NCBI GenBank assembly: GCA_026713485.1
Contig: JAPOOK010000051.1
Coordinates: 914 to 64,913 of the forward strand
DNA: 64,000 bases
Reading direction: 5' to 3'
Source: Chloroflexota bacterium
Lineage (GTDB): Bacteria > Chloroflexota > Dehalococcoidia > UBA6926
Below the pieces are notes generated by a model. It made no database searches, was not told where the DNA came from, and saw only the letters and a list, made by a program, of their open reading frames with translations. Positions 8,601 through 59,132 of this stretch are shown here, one piece after another (within the stretch, counting starts at the first letter, position 1; each line of letters opens with the position of its first letter). The position numbers and the translations under genes are program-made.

Positions 8601-9827
8601 ATGGGCGAGTTCAATAGCGGCGATACTGCCTGGATGTTGATGTCGACAGCACTTGTGCTGTTCATGACACCGGGCCTTGCTTTCTTCTATGGCGGACTGG
8701 TGCGTGGACGAAACGTCATCAGCACGATTTCACTCAGCTTCGTGTCGATGGCCGTGGCCAGCCTTGTCTGGGTGCTCTGGGGATACAGCCTGGCATTCGG
8801 CGACGGCGGAGACCTTAACGCATTTGTAGGCGATCTTTCCTACATAGGCCTCTCCGGCATCGGCATCAACGATGGAGGGAACATTCCTGATCTCCTCTTC
8901 GTTGCATTCCAGATGATGTTCGCCATCATCACACCCGCCCTGATAACGGGCGCAATCGTGGAGAGGTTCAAGTTCACCACGTACATCGTCTTCCTTGTCC
9001 TGTGGCTGACCCTCGTCTACGCCCCCATTTGTCACTGGGTCTGGGCCGAGGGCGGCTGGCTCTTTGAAATGGGTGCGCTTGATTTCGCGGGCGGCACAGT
9101 CGTCCACATCAACGCGGGCGTCGCGGCGCTCATCGCCGCTGTCCTAGTGGGACGCAGGCGCAGGCCGGCACTTGAGCCGCACAACGTCCCGTACGTCGTT
9201 CTAGGCGCGGGCATCCTCTGGTTCGGGTGGTTCGGCTTCAACGCCGGTTCCGGCCTGGCGGCCAACGGGCAGGATGCAAACGCTCTGCTCGTCACCAATA
9301 CGGCTGCGGCTGCAGCAGCGCTGACGTGGGGAATCCTTTCATACATCCAGACTGGTCGAATTAGCACTGTCGGCATTGCCACCGGCGCAGTGGCCGGCCT
9401 CGTGGCCATCACACCGGCTGCGGGATTCGTCAATGTCATGGGCGCTCTTGTGCTCGGAATAGGCGCAGGAATCATCCCGTACTTCTTCGTGCTCTATAGG
9501 CCGCGAATGGGTTTCGACGATGCGCTTGACGTCTTCGGCGTGCACGGCGTCGCAGGAATCTGGGGCGCGCTTGGTACCGGAGTCTTCGCCATTGAGGCTA
9601 TTGGCGGCACGGCGGGACTGCTTGAAGGCAACCCGGAGCAGATGGGAGTGCAGGTGGTCGGTGTTGTCGCAACCCTCGCCTACTCCGGCGTCGCCACATT
9701 CGTCATCCTCAAGGTGCTGGACTTGATCCCCGGCCTTGGACTGAGGGAACCGGAGCCTGCCGAAGATGAGGGTCTTGACTTGGCTGCGCACGGTGAGCGC
9801 GCGTATGTCGCGGACGGCGCAGACTAG
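8601..9827 (+). CDS. amt: Ammonium transporter (Amt/AmtB family)
   Basis: DTAWMLMSTALVLFMTPGLAFFYGG...GAIVERF...HGVAGIWGALGTGVF Amt signature. ATG 8601 is preceded by AGGAGG. Confidence 0.85.
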   Translation: MGEFNSGDTAWMLMSTALVLFMTPGLAFFYGGLVRGRNVISTISLSFVSMAVASLVWVLWGYSLAFGDGGDLNAFVGDLSYIGLSGIGINDGGNIPDLLFVAFQMMFAIITPALITGAIVERFKFTTYIVFLVLWLTLVYAPICHWVWAEGGWLFEMGALDFAGGTVVHINAGVAALIAAVLVGRRRRPALEPHNVPYVVLGAGILWFGWFGFNAGSGLAANGQDANALLVTNTAAAAAALTWGILSYIQTGRISTVGIATGAVAGLVAITPAAGFVNVMGALVLGIGAGIIPYFFVLYRPRMGFDDALDVFGVHGVAGIWGALGTGVFAIEAIGGTAGLLEGNPEQMGVQVVGVVATLAYSGVATFVILKVLDLIPGLGLREPEPAEDEGLDLAAHGERAYVADGAD

Positions 9828-9937
9828 ACCTGCTTCAAGGAATGACTACAATCGGGAGCAACGCGAGAGCGGGAACCGATCCCGCGGCCCGGCGGTCCAA
9901 CACCGCCGGGCCGCCCAGAAGGGAATAGGAGACGACG

Positions 9938-10291
9938 ATGCTGAGCATAGAGGCGATTATCAGGCCTGAAACAATTGAGGACGTGGTAGGAGAGTTGGAG
10001 GCCGTTGGCTGCCGCAAGTTCTACTACGCCAATGTCACCGGCACGGGCCGACAGGGCGGAGTTGAAGTGTTCGTCGGCCGCGCGGGGCAAATGACCCGCC
10101 GCCACGAACGCCCAAGGACGATTCTTCGGGCCGTCGTCGAAGACGGTATGAAAGATGACGTGATCAATGCCATCATCCGTGGCGCCCGTAGCCCGGGCGA
10201 CGGTGAGGTAGGCGATGGCAAGATCTTTGTTTCTAGTGTGGAGGATGTCATCCGCGTTAGGACTGGCGAATCGGGCGAGGCAGCCATCTGA
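9938..10291 (+). CDS. glnK: PII-family nitrogen regulatory protein (GlnK-like, divergent T-loop without Tyr51)
   Basis: 112-117 aa. C-terminal IGDGKIFVSSVEDVIRVRTGE..AAI matches the PII B/C-loop consensus. Sits immediately downstream of amt. T-loop reads GTGRQGGVEVFVGRAGQMTRRHE. Confidence 0.7.
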   Translation: MLSIEAIIRPETIEDVVGELEAVGCRKFYYANVTGTGRQGGVEVFVGRAGQMTRRHERPRTILRAVVEDGMKDDVINAIIRGARSPGDGEVGDGKIFVSSVEDVIRVRTGESGEAAI

Positions 10292-34692: not shown

Positions 34693-35430
34693 GTGCAGAT
34701 ACCGGAGATCGTCAAGCTTTCACTGGCTGAGACATTTGGAGCCTTCGTCCTGCTCCTGATGGGCGCAGGGTCGATCCTGACCGCAACAGCAACCAATCCC
34801 GGCGGCGACAACCTGATTGTCATTGCCTTCGCCCACGGCCTCGCCATCTTCATCGGCGTTTCTGCTGTCGGCCACGTCTCCGGCGCCCACTTCAACCCCG
34901 CCGTTACGTTCGCCTTCCTCATCACCGGCAAGATTCAGCCGCTCACCGCCCTCGCTTATTGGGGTTCCCAACTGCTCGGCGGCATCATAGGCGTGCTCAT
35001 CCTCAGCGCCGTCTTCTCCGGCGCGGGCGACTTGACTGACATGTCCAACGCTGCTGAGGCGACCAACCTCGGCGCGACGGCCCTCCACGGCGATGTCTCA
35101 CCCGCCGCCGGCATCTTTATCGAGGTTGCCCTGACGTTCATCCTCGTATTCGTTATCTTCCAGGTCGCCGTCGACGAGAAGGGCCCCGGCATGATTGCGC
35201 CGTTGGCCATCGGCATGACCATCACCCTCGCCGCGCTGATGGGAGGTCCACTGACCGGAGCGGCGCTCAACCCGGCCCGCGCCTTCGCCCCGGCCCTCAT
35301 CGCCGGCTATTGGACGAACCACTTCGTTTACTGGATCGGCCCGTTGCTCGGCGGTGGCCTCGGCGCCCTCGCCGCCGCCTACCTCATGCAAGGCATGAAA
35401 CTCCGGCTCCCTGGCCGCAAGGGGGACTAA
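34693..35430 (+). CDS. Aquaporin / MIP family channel
   Basis: Two NPA boxes (SGAHFNPAVTF; ALNPARAF) and six TM helices. Confidence 0.85.
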   Translation: MQIPEIVKLSLAETFGAFVLLLMGAGSILTATATNPGGDNLIVIAFAHGLAIFIGVSAVGHVSGAHFNPAVTFAFLITGKIQPLTALAYWGSQLLGGIIGVLILSAVFSGAGDLTDMSNAAEATNLGATALHGDVSPAAGIFIEVALTFILVFVIFQVAVDEKGPGMIAPLAIGMTITLAALMGGPLTGAALNPARAFAPALIAGYWTNHFVYWIGPLLGGGLGALAAAYLMQGMKLRLPGRKGD

Positions 35431-35466
35431 ACACGTGAATTTTCTGTGAGAAAGTAGAGGCAGAGA

Positions 35467-37164
35467 ATGACGCAAGGCACTTTCGAGGCTGGCGAGGTCG
35501 TACTGGCAAAGTTGTTTAGCGACGACTATCTCTTTCGCATGCCATTCTACCAACGTCCCTACTCATGGACTAAGGAAGAAGTGGGAGAACTGCTAAACGA
35601 CCTTCTAGGCGCAATGGATGGGGAATCAGATCCAGAGCCCTACTTCTTAGGTAGCATTGTCCTAATAAGCCACTCTGGATCATCTGAACATGAGGTCATA
35701 GACGGGCAGCAGAGACTGACTACGTTGACAATGTTATTCTGTGTCCTTCGCGAGCTAACGGAAGACCCGGACGATTATGGTAGCCTCGACCAGAGAGTAC
35801 GAGAGAGACCCGACAAATATGCCGGCAGCAAGAATCGATTTAGGCTCCAACTTAGGGACAAAGATGAGGAGTTCTTCCGTGCCAATGTGCAAGAATCTGG
35901 GGGTATAGCCCGGTTCTTGTCCATAGAAACCAAGTATCCGTCAGACCCGCAGGAGTTAATTCTCGAAAATACAAGGCTCCTATGGAACGAACTGTCTAAG
36001 CTGAGCCAAGCGGAGCGTGACAATTTAGCTAGTTTCGTAATCGGGAATTGCTACCTGGTGTCTGTGAAGGCGTATGACCCAGACTCTGCTCATAGAATAT
36101 TCTCAGTATTGAACGCTAGAGGTCTTGATCTAACACCCACGGATGTCCTGAAAGCCGAGGTCATTGGGGATATCCCTGCCAATGAGGGTGAACGCTACAC
36201 ACAAGCATGGGAAGACATTGAAGATGAACTGGGACGAGACAGATTCCGAGAGTTATTCGGGCATATTTTCGTTATCGAAACCGGAGATCGATTTCACCGA
36301 GAATTGGCGAAGGCATTCAGCGAGGAGGTTCTTACCCAGTACAATGGTTCCCAGTCTATTGATAAGACTTTAGGCAGATATGCAGAGGCATTTCAGATAG
36401 TTACTTCTGCCTCGTACGAAAGCGCCCGTCTCGCTGAAGATATCAACCGACATCTCGTTTACCTCCAACGGCTCGGAGACCACCCTGACTGGGTGCCAGT
36501 CGCCATGGTGATGTACGATCGGTTCGGGCTGGAGCCGGAGATATTGTTGGAACTCTTGAAGGGGCTCGATAGGCTCGCGTATGTCATGTTCATTAATGGC
36601 ATCAGGAGGGATGCTAGAATCAGCCGTTATGACCCAGCCATAAAGGCGGCTAAAGACAAGAATAAGGACGCTAGAGAAGTGTTGGCATGCCTGCAACTCA
36701 CTGAGGACGAGCAAGCCGAAGTCGTCCGCTCCCTAAATGGTCCGATTTATGGTACTCGTACAGTTGGAAGGTTCGTGCGACCACTCCTATTGCGACTTGA
36801 CAGTATGCTTGCCGATGCGGGAGCGAAATATGACCCCAAGATTATCACTGTAGAACACGTCCTCCCACAGTCTCCCGAAAAAGACTCTGAGTGGACTAAA
36901 GTCTTCCCTGATGAAGATGAGAGACGCGACTGGACAAACCGGCTTGCCAACTTGGTTCTATTGTCACGAAGCAAAAACTCGCGCGCCCAGAACTACGAGT
37001 TCGACCGCAAAAAGCGTGAGTATTTTCAGAAAGACAGTTCCACGGTATTTGCTTTGACGACGCAGGTCATTGGCGAAGAAAAATGGACCCCACGAGTCCT
37101 TGCCCGCCGGCAAAAGGGCTTGGTTGATGCGTTCCTGAAGGAGTGGGGTATTTCAAACTCCTGA
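35467..37164 (+). CDS. DUF262 (ParB/Srx-like, DGQQR) + DUF1524 (His-Me finger) protein; GmrSD/SspE-family modification-dependent nuclease; lies in a low-GC island
   Basis: N-terminal motifs FYQRPYSW and VIDGQQRLTTL. C-terminal motif EHVLPQS...NRLANLVLLSRSKNSRAQN. Local GC ~50% versus ~65% in flanks. Confidence 0.8.
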   Translation: MTQGTFEAGEVVLAKLFSDDYLFRMPFYQRPYSWTKEEVGELLNDLLGAMDGESDPEPYFLGSIVLISHSGSSEHEVIDGQQRLTTLTMLFCVLRELTEDPDDYGSLDQRVRERPDKYAGSKNRFRLQLRDKDEEFFRANVQESGGIARFLSIETKYPSDPQELILENTRLLWNELSKLSQAERDNLASFVIGNCYLVSVKAYDPDSAHRIFSVLNARGLDLTPTDVLKAEVIGDIPANEGERYTQAWEDIEDELGRDRFRELFGHIFVIETGDRFHRELAKAFSEEVLTQYNGSQSIDKTLGRYAEAFQIVTSASYESARLAEDINRHLVYLQRLGDHPDWVPVAMVMYDRFGLEPEILLELLKGLDRLAYVMFINGIRRDARISRYDPAIKAAKDKNKDAREVLACLQLTEDEQAEVVRSLNGPIYGTRTVGRFVRPLLLRLDSMLADAGAKYDPKIITVEHVLPQSPEKDSEWTKVFPDEDERRDWTNRLANLVLLSRSKNSRAQNYEFDRKKREYFQKDSSTVFALTTQVIGEEKWTPRVLARRQKGLVDAFLKEWGISNS

Positions 37165-37222
37165 TCGAGCTCGGCACCGGAACCGAAGCTGGATCGCGAA
37201 CCGAGAGCTCTAACGCAGTTAG

Positions 37223-38594: not shown

Positions 38595-39353
38595 CTAACG
38601 AACCGCCAGCGGGTTCAGATTCGTCGACTCGTCGTACACGTCGATGCCCTCCTGTTTCTTGAGGAATGTTACGACGGCGTAGGTGAACGGCGTGGCGACC
38701 GTCTCATAGACCACCTTCGTGAACCACTCGACGAAGAAGATCCGCCACACGTCGCCCGTCGAGAGCACCCCAAGAAACGCAATAAACGTGAAGAAGAACG
38801 AGTCCAGCGCCTGCCCGCCAACCGTTGAAGAGATGGTCCGAAGCCACAACATCCGCCCCTTCGTCATCACTTTCAGGCGAGCCAGGATGATGGCATTCGT
38901 GAACGAGCCGATCACATAAGCAATGAAAGAGGCCACCAGCAGCCGTCCCGTGAATCCCAGGATGGTATCGTACGCCGCCTGGTCCCCCCATTCGCTTGCC
39001 GCCGGCAGCAGTCCCCCCAGGTAGATCGCGATGACCATCACGAGATTCGCGCCGAACCCGGCCCAAATAACGCGTCGAGCCACGGCATATCCGTATACCT
39101 CTGTCAGCACGTCTCCAACGATGTAACTCAGGGGAAAGACAACGATTGCCGACGTGACAAGCAGTTCTCCGAAAACGGGCGCATCGCCCAACGTCACAAT
39201 CCGAACCGCAATGATGTTTGAGGTCAACAGTGCTGCGATAAATGCGGCGACCACCGCCAGGAACCATCGCGACCCGGCTCGCGCCGCCCCCGCCTCTTCG
39301 TTGTGGGCCGAAACATCGGATCCGGACAAGACGGCGCAACCCCTCCATTGCAT
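38595..39353 (-). CDS. yhhQ: YhhQ/Vut-family queuosine-precursor (preQ0/preQ1) transporter
   Basis: FPLSYIVGDVLTEVYGY and GQALDS motifs of DUF165/YhhQ. Start at MQWRG (ATG 39353). The ORF-track extension overlaps the divergent gene. Confidence 0.65.
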   Translation of the reverse strand: MQWRGCAVLSGSDVSAHNEEAGAARAGSRWFLAVVAAFIAALLTSNIIAVRIVTLGDAPVFGELLVTSAIVVFPLSYIVGDVLTEVYGYAVARRVIWAGFGANLVMVIAIYLGGLLPAASEWGDQAAYDTILGFTGRLLVASFIAYVIGSFTNAIILARLKVMTKGRMLWLRTISSTVGGQALDSFFFTFIAFLGVLSTGDVWRIFFVEWFTKVVYETVATPFTYAVVTFLKKQEGIDVYDESTNLNPLAVR

Positions 39354-39500
39354 TTGTGAACTGAAAACTGTCGCAAGCATAGCCCACACACTGCGCGCGG
39401 CGGAATGCCCTCCGATACGGTACGATGACGGCAGACTCGGATGCCCGGAACACATTGGACACCCACTCAACTTATGGCCGAGACAGGAGGCAATTGCGCT

Positions 39501-39839
39501 ATGGCACTGCTTTGTTTCGATGTTGACGGAACTCTCGACACCGGTGACGGACCCATTCCCGCGTCTGTCCTCCACGATCTGGAGGGCATGGGCCACAAGG
39601 TCGTCATCGTCTCTCCGTCCCCCCTGCGGCCCAAAGACGCCGGCTTTCCTGAGTTTCTGAGTGTCGACCGCAAGAAGAACCTTCTTGATGCCCTTGAGGC
39701 CCACCCGGATGATCGGCCCGTCTACATCAGCGACAACGATGGGGATGACAAGCTCTCTGAGGAAGTCAACTTCGAGTACGTCCACCCACTCTTTTGGACA
39801 CCCTTCTACACGCGTCTAACCTCTGACGGCGCCAACTAG
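39501..39839 (+). CDS. Minimal HAD-like phosphatase (112 aa)
   Basis: Motif I LCFDVDGTL and motif IV ISDNDGDD. AGGAGG RBS 9 nt upstream. Confidence 0.45.
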   Translation: MALLCFDVDGTLDTGDGPIPASVLHDLEGMGHKVVIVSPSPLRPKDAGFPEFLSVDRKKNLLDALEAHPDDRPVYISDNDGDDKLSEEVNFEYVHPLFWTPFYTRLTSDGAN

Positions 39840-56297: not shown

Positions 56298-56783
56298 ATG
56301 GGAATGGTCGACAAAACGACAAGGCCGTCTCGCAGAGCAGCGAGGCCTGCGAAAGAGTCCGCCCTCAAGCCCGCTGCCAACGGCATCGTCTACCTCTCCG
56401 GAGGCAACCCCCAGATCGCCAAGGGCGATGGCGATGCGCCCGTGCAGGCCTACATCGACGCCATGCCGGAATGGAAGAGCGATATTGGCCGACGGCTAGA
56501 TGACCTCATCGTCCGCGCCGTGCCCAACGTCCGTAAGGCCGTCCGATGGAACTCACCCTTCTACGGCACGGAAGAGCACGGTTGGTTCGTGAGCTACCAC
56601 GTCTTCGCCAAATACATCAAGCTGACGTTCATGAACGGGGCAGGGCTAGACCCCATCCCCCCCGGCGGCGGCAAGGACCCGGACGCCCGCTGGATCGACC
56701 TCTACGAAGGCGACTTCGACGAATCCCAACTAACAAACTGGATCCAACAATCCGCCACCCTCCCCGCCTGGAAAGGCTTCTAA
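56298..56783 (+). CDS. DUF1801 (YdhG-like) domain protein
   Basis: AYIDAMPEWK...RWNSPFYG...IKLTF pattern characteristic of DUF1801. Confidence 0.55.
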   Translation: MGMVDKTTRPSRRAARPAKESALKPAANGIVYLSGGNPQIAKGDGDAPVQAYIDAMPEWKSDIGRRLDDLIVRAVPNVRKAVRWNSPFYGTEEHGWFVSYHVFAKYIKLTFMNGAGLDPIPPGGGKDPDARWIDLYEGDFDESQLTNWIQQSATLPAWKGF

Positions 56784-56797
56784 ACAACCACAACAGT

Positions 56798-57010
56798 CCC
56801 CTCCCCCCCTCGTGAGGGAGGGTTAGGGTGGGGAGGGAGATGCCCCCCGTTCACCCAGAGCTTGTCCAAGAGCACACCGCCGCCCAACCCTGTCATTCCG
56901 AGCGCAGCCGAGGAATCTAAAATCGTGATTAGAAAGCCCCCACTCACCCTGCGCTCATCAAAAAATGGACCCCGCACCCCACCCGTCATTCCCACGAAAG
57001 CGGGAATCCA
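56798..57010 (+). repeat. Repeat cluster: type A (56798..56840), B (56849..56872), D (GTCATTCCGAGCGCAGCCGAGGAATCTAAAATCGTGATTAGAAAGCCC, 56893..56940), B-like (56947..56965), C (56986..57010)
   Basis: Module order and sequence match the other clusters. Read directly from the sequence. Confidence 0.6.
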
Positions 57011-57077
57011 GTACCCAGATCAGAATAGGTTAGGGTAGTGGCAGTGTCAGCATGAGCTGCTGGTCTGATACTACGGA

Positions 57078-57647
57078 TTGAACATGAACGAAGAATCCCC
57101 GCTTTGGTTAATCGTTACCGGCCCTCCGGCAGCCGGCAAGACAACCCTGGCCAGACATATTGCGCCGGATCTGGGCCTCCCCCTATTTGAAAAGGACGTC
57201 TTCAAAGACAACCTCTACGCAGACTTGGGCTTTGGGGACAAGGACTGGTCTCGACGAATCGGCATAAGCGCGATCAACTTGCTGCTACTCACTGCGGATC
57301 GAATGCTGCAGGCTGGCGCCTCCCTTATCACTGAAAGCAATTTCTATCGCCAGTTTTCCTCGCAACAAGTCAGGGAAATTGCAGACGGCACTAAGGCTAA
57401 AGTCATCCAGGTTCATTGCTCCGCATCTCCGGATGTCTTGATTGCGAGGAATGCCGCCCGGCTTGACCAGAATCAACAGCGCATTGGCCACCACGTCATG
57501 CCCAACGAAGAACTGTTGAAAGGACTCAGAAATGGGACATGGGAGCCCCTGGACATTCCCTCAGAGATAATTCGTGTCGATACTTCCAGCGGATTCGATT
57601 ATGCAGATGTGGCAGGGCATATTCGACGTCTCTACGCCGACGACTAA
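57078..57647 (+). CDS. Stand-alone P-loop kinase (AAA_33/zeta-toxin-like NTP-binding) protein
   Basis: Walker A GPPAAGKTTLA. Resembles the C-domain of 10796..12409. Flanked on both sides by repeat clusters. Confidence 0.5.
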   Translation: MNMNEESPLWLIVTGPPAAGKTTLARHIAPDLGLPLFEKDVFKDNLYADLGFGDKDWSRRIGISAINLLLLTADRMLQAGASLITESNFYRQFSSQQVREIADGTKAKVIQVHCSASPDVLIARNAARLDQNQQRIGHHVMPNEELLKGLRNGTWEPLDIPSEIIRVDTSSGFDYADVAGHIRRLYADD

Positions 57648-57687
57648 TCTGCTACTGCCCTCATTTCCACAGTTCCCCGCACCCCAC

Positions 57688-57760
57688 CCGTCATTCCGCG
57701 CGCAGCCAAGGAATCTAAAATCGTAACTAGAAAGCCCCCCCGTTCACCCTGATCCCCGCC
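57688..57760 (+). repeat. Repeat modules D (57688..57735) and B (57742..57760)
   Basis: GTCATTCCGCGCGCAGCCAAGGAATCTAAAATCGTAACTAGAAAGCCCCC followed by CGTTCACCCTGATCC. Confidence 0.55.
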
Positions 57761-57778
57761 GCAAGCTGACTCCCGCCC

Positions 57779-58174
57779 CTAGCTCTCCCGCTCTTTCCGC
57801 CCCGTAATCGCCGCAACAAGCAACATCAGCGCCGATGGCAGGCAGAAGATGCCGATCGACCACACGGCGAGTACGCAGAAACCCAACAACAATACAAACG
57901 GTATCCAGAGCAGCGGGCCGCGTACCCGCTTAGTCCTGTCTGTGAATCGAAGAGTCACCACCGGGATAACGGTCAATACAACGGGAACCATCAACGGCAC
58001 AAAGATATAAGCGCCATTTACCTCCAACCCACTTCGCTGTGTGGCCATCATTCCACCATCAGAGCTTGACGAGTAGCCGGAGTAAACCGGCCCAAAAGCA
58101 AAGAAAAGTAGCACAGCCCACGTCAACAGATGAGCGACTACCGCCAACGTGATCGCTAGTCTAGGCCGTCTCAT
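57779..58174 (-). CDS. Hypothetical integral membrane protein (4 TM)
   Basis: Hydrophobic ORF with codon usage consistent with the window. No recognisable family. Confidence 0.35.
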   Translation of the reverse strand: MRRPRLAITLAVVAHLLTWAVLLFFAFGPVYSGYSSSSDGGMMATQRSGLEVNGAYIFVPLMVPVVLTVIPVVTLRFTDRTKRVRGPLLWIPFVLLLGFCVLAVWSIGIFCLPSALMLLVAAITGRKERES

Positions 58175-58214
58175 GAGGCCATCCCTTTCCTACGTCGCCA
58201 CCATGCAAGAGTAG

Positions 58215-58916
58215 TCAATGGGTGGGAACCGAGAGGTGATTAAGCGTTCGCCGCCCCACCTCCACCCCCAGTACCACGTCCAACATCTCCAGAATCGCCT
58301 GTGTTGGCACGCGATCTCCGATGTTTATACCGACGTACCCCCACACCACACCGCCGTCCGGTCGGATGACAAACGTCGCGGGCGCGGCCACACCGTCCCC
58401 CAGCAGATTGAACACCCCGTAGCTCTTCGACACGTCCTCGCTCGTGTCCGCCAGGATCGGGAACTCCGCCCCCGCCATCACCTCCATCCGCTCGGCATCG
58501 ACCAACAAGTCCGTGCTGATCGCCGCGAGGCCGACGTTCCGGTTCTCAAACTCGTCGTAGAAACTCTGCAACTCGACCAGTTGCTGCTGGCAGATGCCTC
58601 AACCGTAGCTGCGATAGAAGACCACCACGAGCGCATCGCGCCCCGCCAACAGATCATCCAACGAGTGCCTCTCGCCAGTGCCCGTAGACAGTGAGAAATC
58701 CGGCGCTTGTGGCGCTTCGGGCTCCGGAGTCTCTGTTGGAACCGCGGTGGGCGAAGGCAAAGGCGTGTCCGTCGGGGACGGCGTTACGGTTGGAGAGGGC
58801 GCGAGAGTTGGAGCGGGTGTTGGAGATTCCTCCGAGCAACCCGCGAGCACGACGCTCAGCGCCAGCATGGCCACCACCAACAACAATTGGAAGGGCACGA
58901 AACGACGGGTAATCAC
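58215..58916 (-). CDS. Lipoprotein Prx-like/AhpC-TSA-family redoxin interrupted by an in-frame TGA (58599..58601) at the first Cys of the CxxC motif; selenoprotein candidate (UGIC) or pseudogene
   Basis: ORFs 58599..58916 and 58215..58571 are in the same frame. The joined product reads ...LVVVFYRSYG-[TGA]-GICQQQLVEL..., matching the family motif FRGxW-CPxC-RRHL. N-terminus has an LAGC lipobox and a TP-rich linker. Confidence 0.45.
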
Positions 58917-58937
58917 CCCTCCATACTAATCGGCCTC

Positions 58938-59050
58938 AGCTCCTCCTGAGCCGGTCGAAGGGCGACGAATACTGTCATTCCGAGCGCAGCCGAGGAATCT
59001 AAAGCCGTGATTGGGAAGCCCTCTCGCTCACCTTGAGCTTGTCGAAGGGC
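58938..59050 (+). repeat. Repeat modules B (58938..58962), D (58970..59020), B (59025..59050)
   Basis: CTCCTGAGCCGGTCGAAGGG / GTCATTCCGAGCGCAGCCGAGGAATCTAAAGCCGTGATTGGGAAGCCC / CTCACCTTGAGCTTGTCGAAGGG. Confidence 0.55.
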
Positions 59051-59132
59051 TCCCCGCTCCGGGATTCAGACACCTACTTGTTCCCTCAGCGATACTTAAA
59101 CGATATGAAAGATCGGAGGATTTGGTAATCGA

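Follow-up and report, generated by a model that had tools for sequence, protein, structure and literature searches.

How did a single AT-rich gene come to lie between two conserved housekeeping genes of a Dehalococcoidia genome, and what might its product do there? The gene occupies positions 35467-37164 (plus strand) of the stretch analysed here, a window of 64,000 nucleotides (nt) from a Chloroflexota bacterium of the UBA6926 lineage (assembly GCA_026713485.1, contig JAPOOK010000051.1). It lies between an aquaporin gene (MIP) and a convergent citrate synthase gene, and encodes an intact 565-amino-acid (aa) protein of the GmrSD family, in which an N-terminal DUF262 domain is joined through a linker to a C-terminal DUF1524 nuclease domain. 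We propose that its product is probably a defence nuclease that was acquired horizontally and acts alone, in the manner of HEC-06 and type IV enzymes, independently of partner genes; a defence role and enzymatic activities can be ascribed to it by analogy with characterised relatives.

A single-gene island of foreign composition

Between the MIP stop codon (35430) and the stop codon of citrate synthase (37223, minus strand), the nuclease gene is the sole plausible gene, in agreement with a sequence-only reading of this DNA that had counted exactly one gene of 565 aa. Two antisense open reading frames (ORFs) of 82 and 114 aa in the same interval are mechanical calls only. The gene has a GC content of 0.499 and a GC content at third codon positions (GC3) of 0.539, against 0.585-0.642 and 0.71-0.82 respectively in seven neighbouring genes; relative to 40 other ORFs, its GC3 has a z-score of -3.6. 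No 1.7-kb sliding window anywhere in the 64 kb falls below the island in GC content (0.499 versus a mean of 0.602, standard deviation 0.022), the next lowest value elsewhere being 0.559. The contrast is real and far above local fluctuation. The sequence-only reading had placed the island at about 50% GC, which holds, and the background at about 65%, which is too high and should read about 60-64%.

A small slot with four states in five genomes

We compared the interval between MIP and citrate synthase across five related genomes, namely the window and four relatives (L001, L003, L004 and L093). In L004, a closed chromosome (OZ243973.1) whose flanking proteins are 77-87% identical to those of the window, the slot is empty: MIP and citrate synthase converge with 72 nt between them, and the genes for a Zn-dehydrogenase (ADH) and PdxA lie beyond. 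In L003, with flanks 93-94% identical in nucleotide and 96-99.5% in amino acid sequence, the slot is occupied by an unrelated 937-bp insert (L003:9334-10270) that carries a low-GC hydrolase gene of the HAD family (ORF 9438-10082, minus strand; PF13419, E = 3.3e-28; GC3 0.47). L001, whose flanks are about 83-85% identical in nucleotide sequence, possesses the same nuclease allele (L001:6605-8302; 86.5% aa identity) with identical junctions and a GC3 of 0.55. Finally, L093 combines flanks of 92-96% aa identity (84% for MIP) with a nuclease that is 59% identical to that of the window, preceded by a 381-nt upstream gap, an extra 91-aa ORF and a different MIP tail.

Four states are therefore represented: no insert at all, the HAD gene, or one of two diverged nuclease alleles. 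Since the closest relative lacks the nuclease gene, and more distant relatives carry either the same or a very different allele, the slot has been filled at least three times independently, by allele A, by allele B and by the HAD gene. These comparisons indicate that the nuclease gene is an accessory insertion in a turnover hotspot and not part of the ancestral core. The horizontal origin that the sequence-only reading had proposed is borne out by the foreign composition together with the presence/absence polymorphism at a syntenic site.

The opposite view would hold that the gene is an ancestral core gene of atypical composition that was never acquired horizontally. L001, with the same gene, junctions and GC content, is what this view would predict, and it is the only relative in which gene, place and composition all agree. 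The view is otherwise largely refuted and retains next to no credibility: the site is empty in L004 despite conserved synteny, the very similar flanks of L003 enclose unrelated cargo, the 59% allele of L093 has different junctions within flanks that are themselves well conserved, and the nearest alleles reside at other loci and in other phyla.

Nucleotide homology to L003 (blastn) breaks at 35397/35398 and at 37191/37192, so the island includes a replaced segment of about the last 11 codons of the MIP gene (35398-35430, plus strand) at its left end. The resulting MIP tail, MKLRLPGRKGD (stop), is common to the window and L001; L003, L093 and L004 have a tail resembling MRGLPKWGSSD (stop). At the other end, an island-specific 3′ spacer (37165-37191) leads to the right junction at about 37191/37192, where homology to L003 resumes at 37192, 32 nt before the citrate synthase stop codon. 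Neither direct nor inverted repeats mark the ends of the island, and the nearest tRNA gene is at 46.8 kb.

The insertion shared by the window and L001 is, judged by its divergence, old, because synonymous divergence (dS) between the two nuclease genes is 1.55 (near saturation) and that of the flanks is 0.5-0.9. A recent transfer between the two lineages is not supported, as dS of the island exceeds that of the flanks and flank identity is not raised near the junctions.

Integration hotspots that are flanked by core genes and collect defence or accessory genes are known from pan-genome studies. The slot between MIP and citrate synthase resembles them in holding differing cargo or none, in that its cargo is AT-richer than the host, and in the lack of recognisable mobility genes. 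It differs in accommodating single genes (0.9-2.7 kb), in its position where two housekeeping genes converge with their 3′ ends, and in that equivalent slots of sister lineages lie inside atp and nuo operons.

A dispersed palindrome of about 50 nt (core GTCATTCCGAGCGCAGCCGAGGAATCTAAAG), resembling repetitive extragenic palindromes (REP) or miniature inverted-repeat transposable elements, occurs three times in the window (56894-56917, 57692-57715 and 58976-58999) against 0.06 copies expected. It is also present within the slot itself in L093 (6632-6655 and 6841-6864) and L003 (10208-10229). As a candidate boundary of the nuclease island it was rejected, being absent from the slot in both the window and L001. 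We likewise rejected the idea that the HAD gene of L003 is the remnant of a combined nuclease and HAD island such as that found in L092, a contig carrying another member of the clade; the two HAD proteins are 25% identical over 126 aa.

An intact member of the GmrSD family

Both domains expected of a GmrSD-family protein were recovered by profile search, well above their gathering cut-offs. PF03235 (GmrSD_N) matches residues 14-232 (35506-36162, plus strand) with an E-value of 5.8e-37 and 128 bits (cut-off 33.2), covering profile positions 2-198 of 199; this ParB-like NTPase domain aligns with the N-terminal domains of DndI and SspE. PF07510 (GmrSD_C), a His-Me finger nuclease domain that aligns with the HNH region of the same two proteins, matches residues 437-553 (36775-37125, plus strand; E = 4.9e-25, 88.5 bits, cut-off 23). 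The intervening residues 233-436 (36163-36774, plus strand) are predicted by AlphaFold2 to form an all-helical linker, with local confidence (pLDDT) mostly between 85 and 98, and fall within the full-length structural match to DndI. The motifs on which the sequence-only reading had relied are all present in the translation and on the plus strand: FYQRPYSW (35545-35568), DGQQR (D79-R83; 35701-35715) and the catalytic motif E463-H464...N495...N504...N509 (EHVLPQS...NLVLLSRSKNSRAQN; 36853-36993).

These motifs are strongly conserved. In an alignment of 35 clade members that are 47-87% identical to the window protein, residues Q29, R30, P31, Y32 and W34, the D79-G-Q-Q-R83 string, and E463, H464, N495, K503, N504 and N509 are invariant. 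Between the window gene and its orthologue in L001, the ratio of nonsynonymous to synonymous substitution (dN/dS) is 0.049. This invariance and the low ratio together indicate that the gene is intact, functional and under strong purifying selection.

An AlphaFold2 model built from 35 homologues reached a mean pLDDT of 83.6 and a predicted TM-score (pTM) of 0.80. Foldseek comparison of this model with the PDB returned DndI (9JFL), SspE and BrxU, in that order, and no unrelated fold below an E-value of 1e-3. Searches with phmmer recovered the DndI and SspE chains with both the DGQQR and His-Me regions aligned, DndI being the best PDB sequence match (1.4e-17). By sequence and by model, the window protein shows each testable feature of the GmrSD family in its domains, motifs and fold.

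Within this family, PADLOC profiles allow a finer placement. The top match, PDLC02686, is end-to-end (8.9e-142, 471 bits) and bears the name 'Orf5', which spans 17 diverse models in that collection. The name derives from the original designation of dndI, for which "orf5 was designated as dndI" (PMC4198939). Three HEC-06 models (PDLC04155, PDLC04157 and PDLC04154) also match end-to-end, with E-values of 5.6e-63 to 2.8e-59 and about 200-211 bits. Profiles for SspE (80 bits, residues 10-97) and mREase_IV (residues 12-95) match essentially the first 100 or so residues only, and no NCBIfam family matched. An identical protein (P0001) from an NCBI Chloroflexi metagenome-assembled genome is annotated there as "DUF262 domain-containing HNH endonuclease family protein".

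HEC-06 (Hma-embedded candidate 6) is a phage defence of the GmrSD-like type encoded by one gene. It and the window protein both have about 560 residues and the order DUF262-linker-DUF1524, and HEC-06 acts without a partner gene. Defence by HEC-06 requires Q79, R80, E471 and H472, as demonstrated by the substitutions Q79A, R80A, E471A and H472A (bioRxiv 10.1101/2024.01.29.577857); the corresponding DGQQR and E-H residues are present in the window protein (Q82/R83 and E463/H464) and invariant in its clade. However, the window protein scores higher on PDLC02686 than on the HEC-06 models (471 versus 211 bits), which places it in a sister subfamily and not in HEC-06 proper. A further difference is that the window gene is not embedded, as far as the scanned ORFs described below extend, in an Hma or type I restriction-modification (R-M) system; its 41%-identical plasmid homologues are.

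DndI, of the phosphorothioation-sensing system IscS-DndBCDE-DndI, is the closest solved structure (Foldseek E = 1.4e-15, TM-score 0.63, full length), yet shares only 18% sequence identity with the window protein. Domain order, the DGQQR motif, the tyrosine of the YQR motif and the HNH asparagine are common to both. DndI defence depends on R87 and N541, as the R87A and N541A variants demonstrate (PMC11662687). SspE of the SspABCD-SspE system (6JIV/7DRS; Foldseek E = 1.7e-13) aligns in its N-terminal DUF262 domain with DGQQR and in its C-terminal His-Me motif, but it is longer (about 770 residues, within a range of about 750-790, versus 565 here) and yields only the partial profile match noted above and a TM-score of 0.45. 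BrxU, EcoCT-GmrSD and Eco94GmrSD, classical modification-dependent type IV enzymes (7P9K; Foldseek E = 1.9e-6), share the Pfam architecture and, as stand-alone or accessory nucleases, require no cognate methylase; here the global TM-score is 0.30, phmmer gave no BrxU match at E <0.01, and the mREase_IV profile is confined to the N-terminal residues. The sequence-only reading had assigned the gene to a GmrSD/BrxU/SspE family. Its DUF262-DUF1524 GmrSD assignment stands, with the amendment that the closest characterised relatives are DndI and HEC-06 and not EcoCT-GmrSD, BrxU or SspE.

Partner genes and mode of action

Pfam scans for partner and mobility functions were run on the 20 largest ORFs that the window holds between 25.7 and 55.4 kb. 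Among these 20, there was no methyltransferase, no dnd, ssp or BREX gene (PglZ, PglX or BrxC-type), no integrase and no transposase; metabolic and housekeeping functions only were found. The absence of flanking methyltransferase, dnd/ssp or BREX partners, and of an integrase or direct repeats at the boundaries, had been noted in the sequence-only reading and is upheld within this range. Further, none of the dnd, ssp, BREX or methylase genes adjoins the nuclease gene in 11 other chromosomal contexts. The sole exception is a DndB-like ORF that lies between insertion sequence elements in one contig variant only.

The window gene lacks, within this range, the linkages of these three characterised relatives. 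DndI is linked to dndBCDE and often dndFGH, SspE requires adjacent sspBCD, and BrxU is associated with BREX; none of these genes occurs among the scanned ORFs. Because modification and partner genes were missing both here and from the immediate surroundings of the gene in the 11 other contexts, the protein most likely works alone, as do HEC-06 and the classical type IV enzymes. On sequence and by analogy, it would best be described as a DndI/HEC-06-like member of a sister subfamily that acts by itself.

A rival possibility is that the protein is an effector of the DndI/SspE type, served by dnd or ssp genes elsewhere in the genome. In that case, phosphorothioate (PT) modification of self DNA would stimulate the NTPase and release the protein, and the unmodified invader would be nicked. 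Both the nearest experimental structure and the top-ranking PADLOC name point to DndI/Orf5, and Y28 of the window protein is equivalent to the PT-sensing residues Y25 of DndI and Y30 of SspE. However, that column holds tyrosine in 28 of the 35 clade members and histidine in the other seven, and the tyrosine belongs to the general YQR motif, making it non-diagnostic. Identity to DndI is low, and characterised DndI and SspE nuclease genes adjoin their modification genes (PMC11662687), an arrangement not seen among the scanned ORFs or in the other contexts, bar the DndB-like ORF. Moreover, for a nuclease that is toxic without PT modification, gain or loss as a single unit among close relatives would be hazardous. 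That the gene has been gained, lost and swapped in this manner, with no partners nearby, favours partner-independent action, and we regard the PT-sensing alternative as unlikely.

The family offers two modes of sparing self DNA. Enzymes of the GmrSD/BrxU type cut only modified foreign DNA, and SspE and DndI do not cleave phosphorothioate DNA; for these two, PT is a mark of self to be sensed, and the target is foreign DNA that lacks the modification (PMC11662687). The sequence-only reading had described the family as cleaving modified DNA, including phosphorothioate DNA, which is accurate for the first mode and wrong in its phosphorothioate part. For the window protein, we favour partner-independent action of the HEC-06/type IV kind.

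We therefore return to a stand-alone GmrSD-family nuclease and suggest how it might operate. The N-terminal ParB-like NTPase, with its DGQQR motif, would be coupled via the helical linker to the C-terminal His-Me finger DNA nickase/endonuclease. By analogy with HEC-06, DndI and SspE, NTP hydrolysis in the N-terminal domain may control DNA binding and release by the C-terminal region, and the E-H...N...N centre may nick and then linearise invading phage or plasmid DNA. Foreign DNA would be told apart by some feature of that DNA, for example a modified base. The gene itself was acquired horizontally, entering a short variable interval with a conserved gene on either side, and has since been kept under strong purifying selection.

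Expression is most simply modelled as read-through. A promoter scan found no promoter-like site across 34.5-38.7 kb. Terminator-like sites numbered six against 3.4 expected, every one of them within coding sequence, and the 3′ end of the nuclease gene has no significant hairpin or terminator (hairpin z-scores -1.3 and -0.5). The 36-nt 5′ spacer (35431-35466, plus strand), about 83% conserved in L001, contains a Shine-Dalgarno-like AGAGG motif, and its lack of any promoter-like or terminator-like site is consistent with read-through from the MIP gene. Transcription probably continues from the co-directional string of genes for enoyl-CoA hydratase, PdxA, ADH and MIP.

Relatives within core operons and on plasmids

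Beyond the species group, the nearest homologues are 62-68% identical to the window protein, and all five lie co-directionally within F1Fo ATP synthase operons, between atpA and atpG. They come from five assemblies (L002:9230-12205; L083:7533-10264, represented by L083/L084; L085:7536-9718; L090:6259-9130; L091:6951-9656). These alleles are 67-86% identical to each other, and their GC3 is below that of the atp genes. All clade members tested match PDLC02686 end-to-end.

A conserved, unannotated family of small low-GC ORFs (119-125 aa) lies immediately ahead of the nuclease gene at four of the five atp-operon loci (L083:7533-7910; L085:7536-7913; L002:9530-9889; L090:6558-6917). Its members have the motifs VHGD, CxxC and ELHDxDCWG, gave no Pfam or PADLOC match, and are absent from the window. 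They could be a partner, a regulator or independent cargo.

A more distant homologue (52% identity) was observed within a nuo (complex I) operon, between nuoK and nuoL and ending 1 nt before nuoL, in four contig variants (L097-L100: 8658-10684). It is preceded by a 101-aa ORF, and the same operon carries a TumE-like gene and a 95-aa ORF between nuoC and nuoD. Across the 11 contexts, the upstream gene is co-directional with the nuclease gene in 9 and the upstream gap measures 36-111 nt in 8; the nuclease gene is AT-richer than its flanks in every host. A search of the accessible literature returned no report of GmrSD genes embedded in housekeeping operons.

Such placement may reflect where compact genomes tolerate cargo, other small cargo sharing the same slots; it may represent hitch-hiking on constitutive operons; or it may result from a homing-like spread by the nuclease itself, the least likely of the three. 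We can envisage a common lifestyle for the PDLC02686 subfamily in Chloroflexota and their relatives, in which a single promoter-less gene enters core strings (atpA|atpG, nuoK|nuoL and MIP|citrate synthase) co-directionally and with gaps of 1-110 nt, by a homing-like or operon hitch-hiking mechanism. As a general rule this is a speculative proposal, and the odds are well against it.

The homing variant deserves scrutiny of its own. The gene would then be a selfish, free-standing element resembling a homing endonuclease gene, which cuts conserved housekeeping loci that lack it and is copied into them by recombinational repair, a process that would explain precise single-gene insertions. A lone nuclease gene does recur in tight intergenic slots (MIP-citrate synthase, atpA-atpG and nuoK-nuoL) with no integrase or repeat signatures; the adjoining MIP 3′ tail was replaced together with the island, and two different alleles have entered one slot between MIP and citrate synthase. 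However, the same slots also take cargo that is not a nuclease, namely the HAD hydrolase in L003 and small ORFs and toxin-antitoxin-like genes in the atp and nuo operons. Close to the island, the flanks of the window and L001 are no more similar than further away, alleles 62-68% identical to the window gene occupy a different site in the atp operon, and the only role demonstrated for the NTPase-coupled GmrSD architecture is in defence. Homing is accordingly a very improbable explanation.

Equally far-fetched, in our estimation, is a domesticated role outside defence, such as DNA repair or nucleoid maintenance, for a gene that would be co-expressed with housekeeping operons and maintained vertically. 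The strong purifying selection fits such a role, as do the co-directional orientation, the short gaps and an atp-operon position that is conserved across alleles differing considerably in sequence. It is contradicted by presence/absence and allele replacement among close relatives, by foreign GC3 in every host, and by the occurrence of the subfamily on conjugative plasmids beside R-M systems.

We found 119 full-length homologues on plasmids (best identity 41%), mostly conjugative enterobacterial ones. A Rhodococcus plasmid carries a subfamily member next to DUF1156/DUF499 genes, which we take to be Hma components. On conjugative IncF plasmids of Klebsiella and Enterobacter, a member of the PDLC02686 subfamily recurs, with 916 Klebsiella records giving a match. 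In the Klebsiella IncF plasmid L094 (NZ_LR890193.1:2543-12050), a 41%-identical member heads a type I R-M system in the string WYL-DUF262-HsdM-HsdS-HsdR. This proximity to type I R-M systems on IncF plasmids, and to the presumed Hma genes on the Rhodococcus plasmid, is counted as evidence of a defence context, and the distribution as a whole indicates that the PDLC02686 subfamily is mobile and crosses phyla. Embedding of GmrSD-like genes in other defence systems, as in these plasmid contexts, has been described before (bioRxiv 10.1101/2024.01.29.577857).

Elsewhere in the clade, L092:5940-9766 holds a member whose neighbour is a low-GC gene for a type II restriction endonuclease (PADLOC REase_II 6.6e-52; Pfam RE_CfrBI), with no methyltransferase annotated among the genes adjoining the pair. 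A phage collection gave partial matches only, of 23-45% identity (best near-full-length match 23%), and so no evidence of a phage-borne clade. Metagenome contigs yielded four distant protein matches only (25-32% identity), with no useful context.

Several considerations weigh against the reading of a lone defence nuclease of horizontal origin. The closest structural counterpart of the window protein, DndI, does not act alone and is toxic without DndBCDE (PMC11662687). The inspection spanned 64 kb of the genome, and an unlinked PT system could be encoded elsewhere. The closest clade members reside in atp and nuo operons and not in defence islands, an unusual setting for defence genes. Finally, the window and L001 both have a nuclease GC3 of about 0.54-0.55 despite a dS above 1, in hosts whose GC3 is about 0.8; the low GC looks maintained, and recent horizontal transfer alone does not account for the composition.

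Significance

In itself, the gene adds one more stand-alone nuclease to a known family, and NCBI already labels its product a DUF262 HNH endonuclease. Its source is an uncultured Dehalococcoidia lineage in which phage defence has barely been studied; the sequence of the neighbouring citrate synthase likewise assigns the window to Dehalococcoidia. The locus is of wider use as a clean natural experiment, in which five genomes present four states of one tiny slot, none with a mobile-element signature. If the operon pattern proves general, it would mean that insertion into core operons can serve genes of innate immunity both for their spread and for their expression, and methods of discovery based on defence islands would miss such genes. 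A homing-like or hitch-hiking mechanism, if true, would constitute a new mode of defence-gene mobility or regulation, distinct both from defence islands and from embedding in other defence systems. There is also a practical consequence for annotation: the best PADLOC profile is that of a Dnd accessory, "Orf5", and judging from our profile search rather than a full PADLOC run, a lone copy may go uncalled as a defence system.

Neighbouring genes and other observations

Upstream of the nuclease gene, Pfam identifies two CoA-transferases, an SDR protein, TauE, enoyl-CoA hydratase, PdxA, the Zn-dehydrogenase and MIP. Downstream are citrate synthase, a Vut_1 transporter, HU, riboflavin genes, SIMPL, a histidine kinase and an OpuA-type ABC transporter. 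The Vut_1 gene adjacent to citrate synthase (38595-39785, minus strand), which is presumably a YhhQ-like queuosine-precursor transporter, is far more divergent among the relatives than its neighbours are: identity is 86% in L003, 63% in L093 and 45% in L004, whereas citrate synthase stays at 82-99.5%. The ORF as called mechanically is too long, the Pfam domain beginning only at residue 212.

The second-lowest GC region of the window, at 56300-59100, contains several short ORFs, including one for a 189-aa P-loop protein (GPPAAGKTT) and another of 161 aa. These ORFs are interspersed with the three REP-like repeats, and the region may be a further small accessory region.

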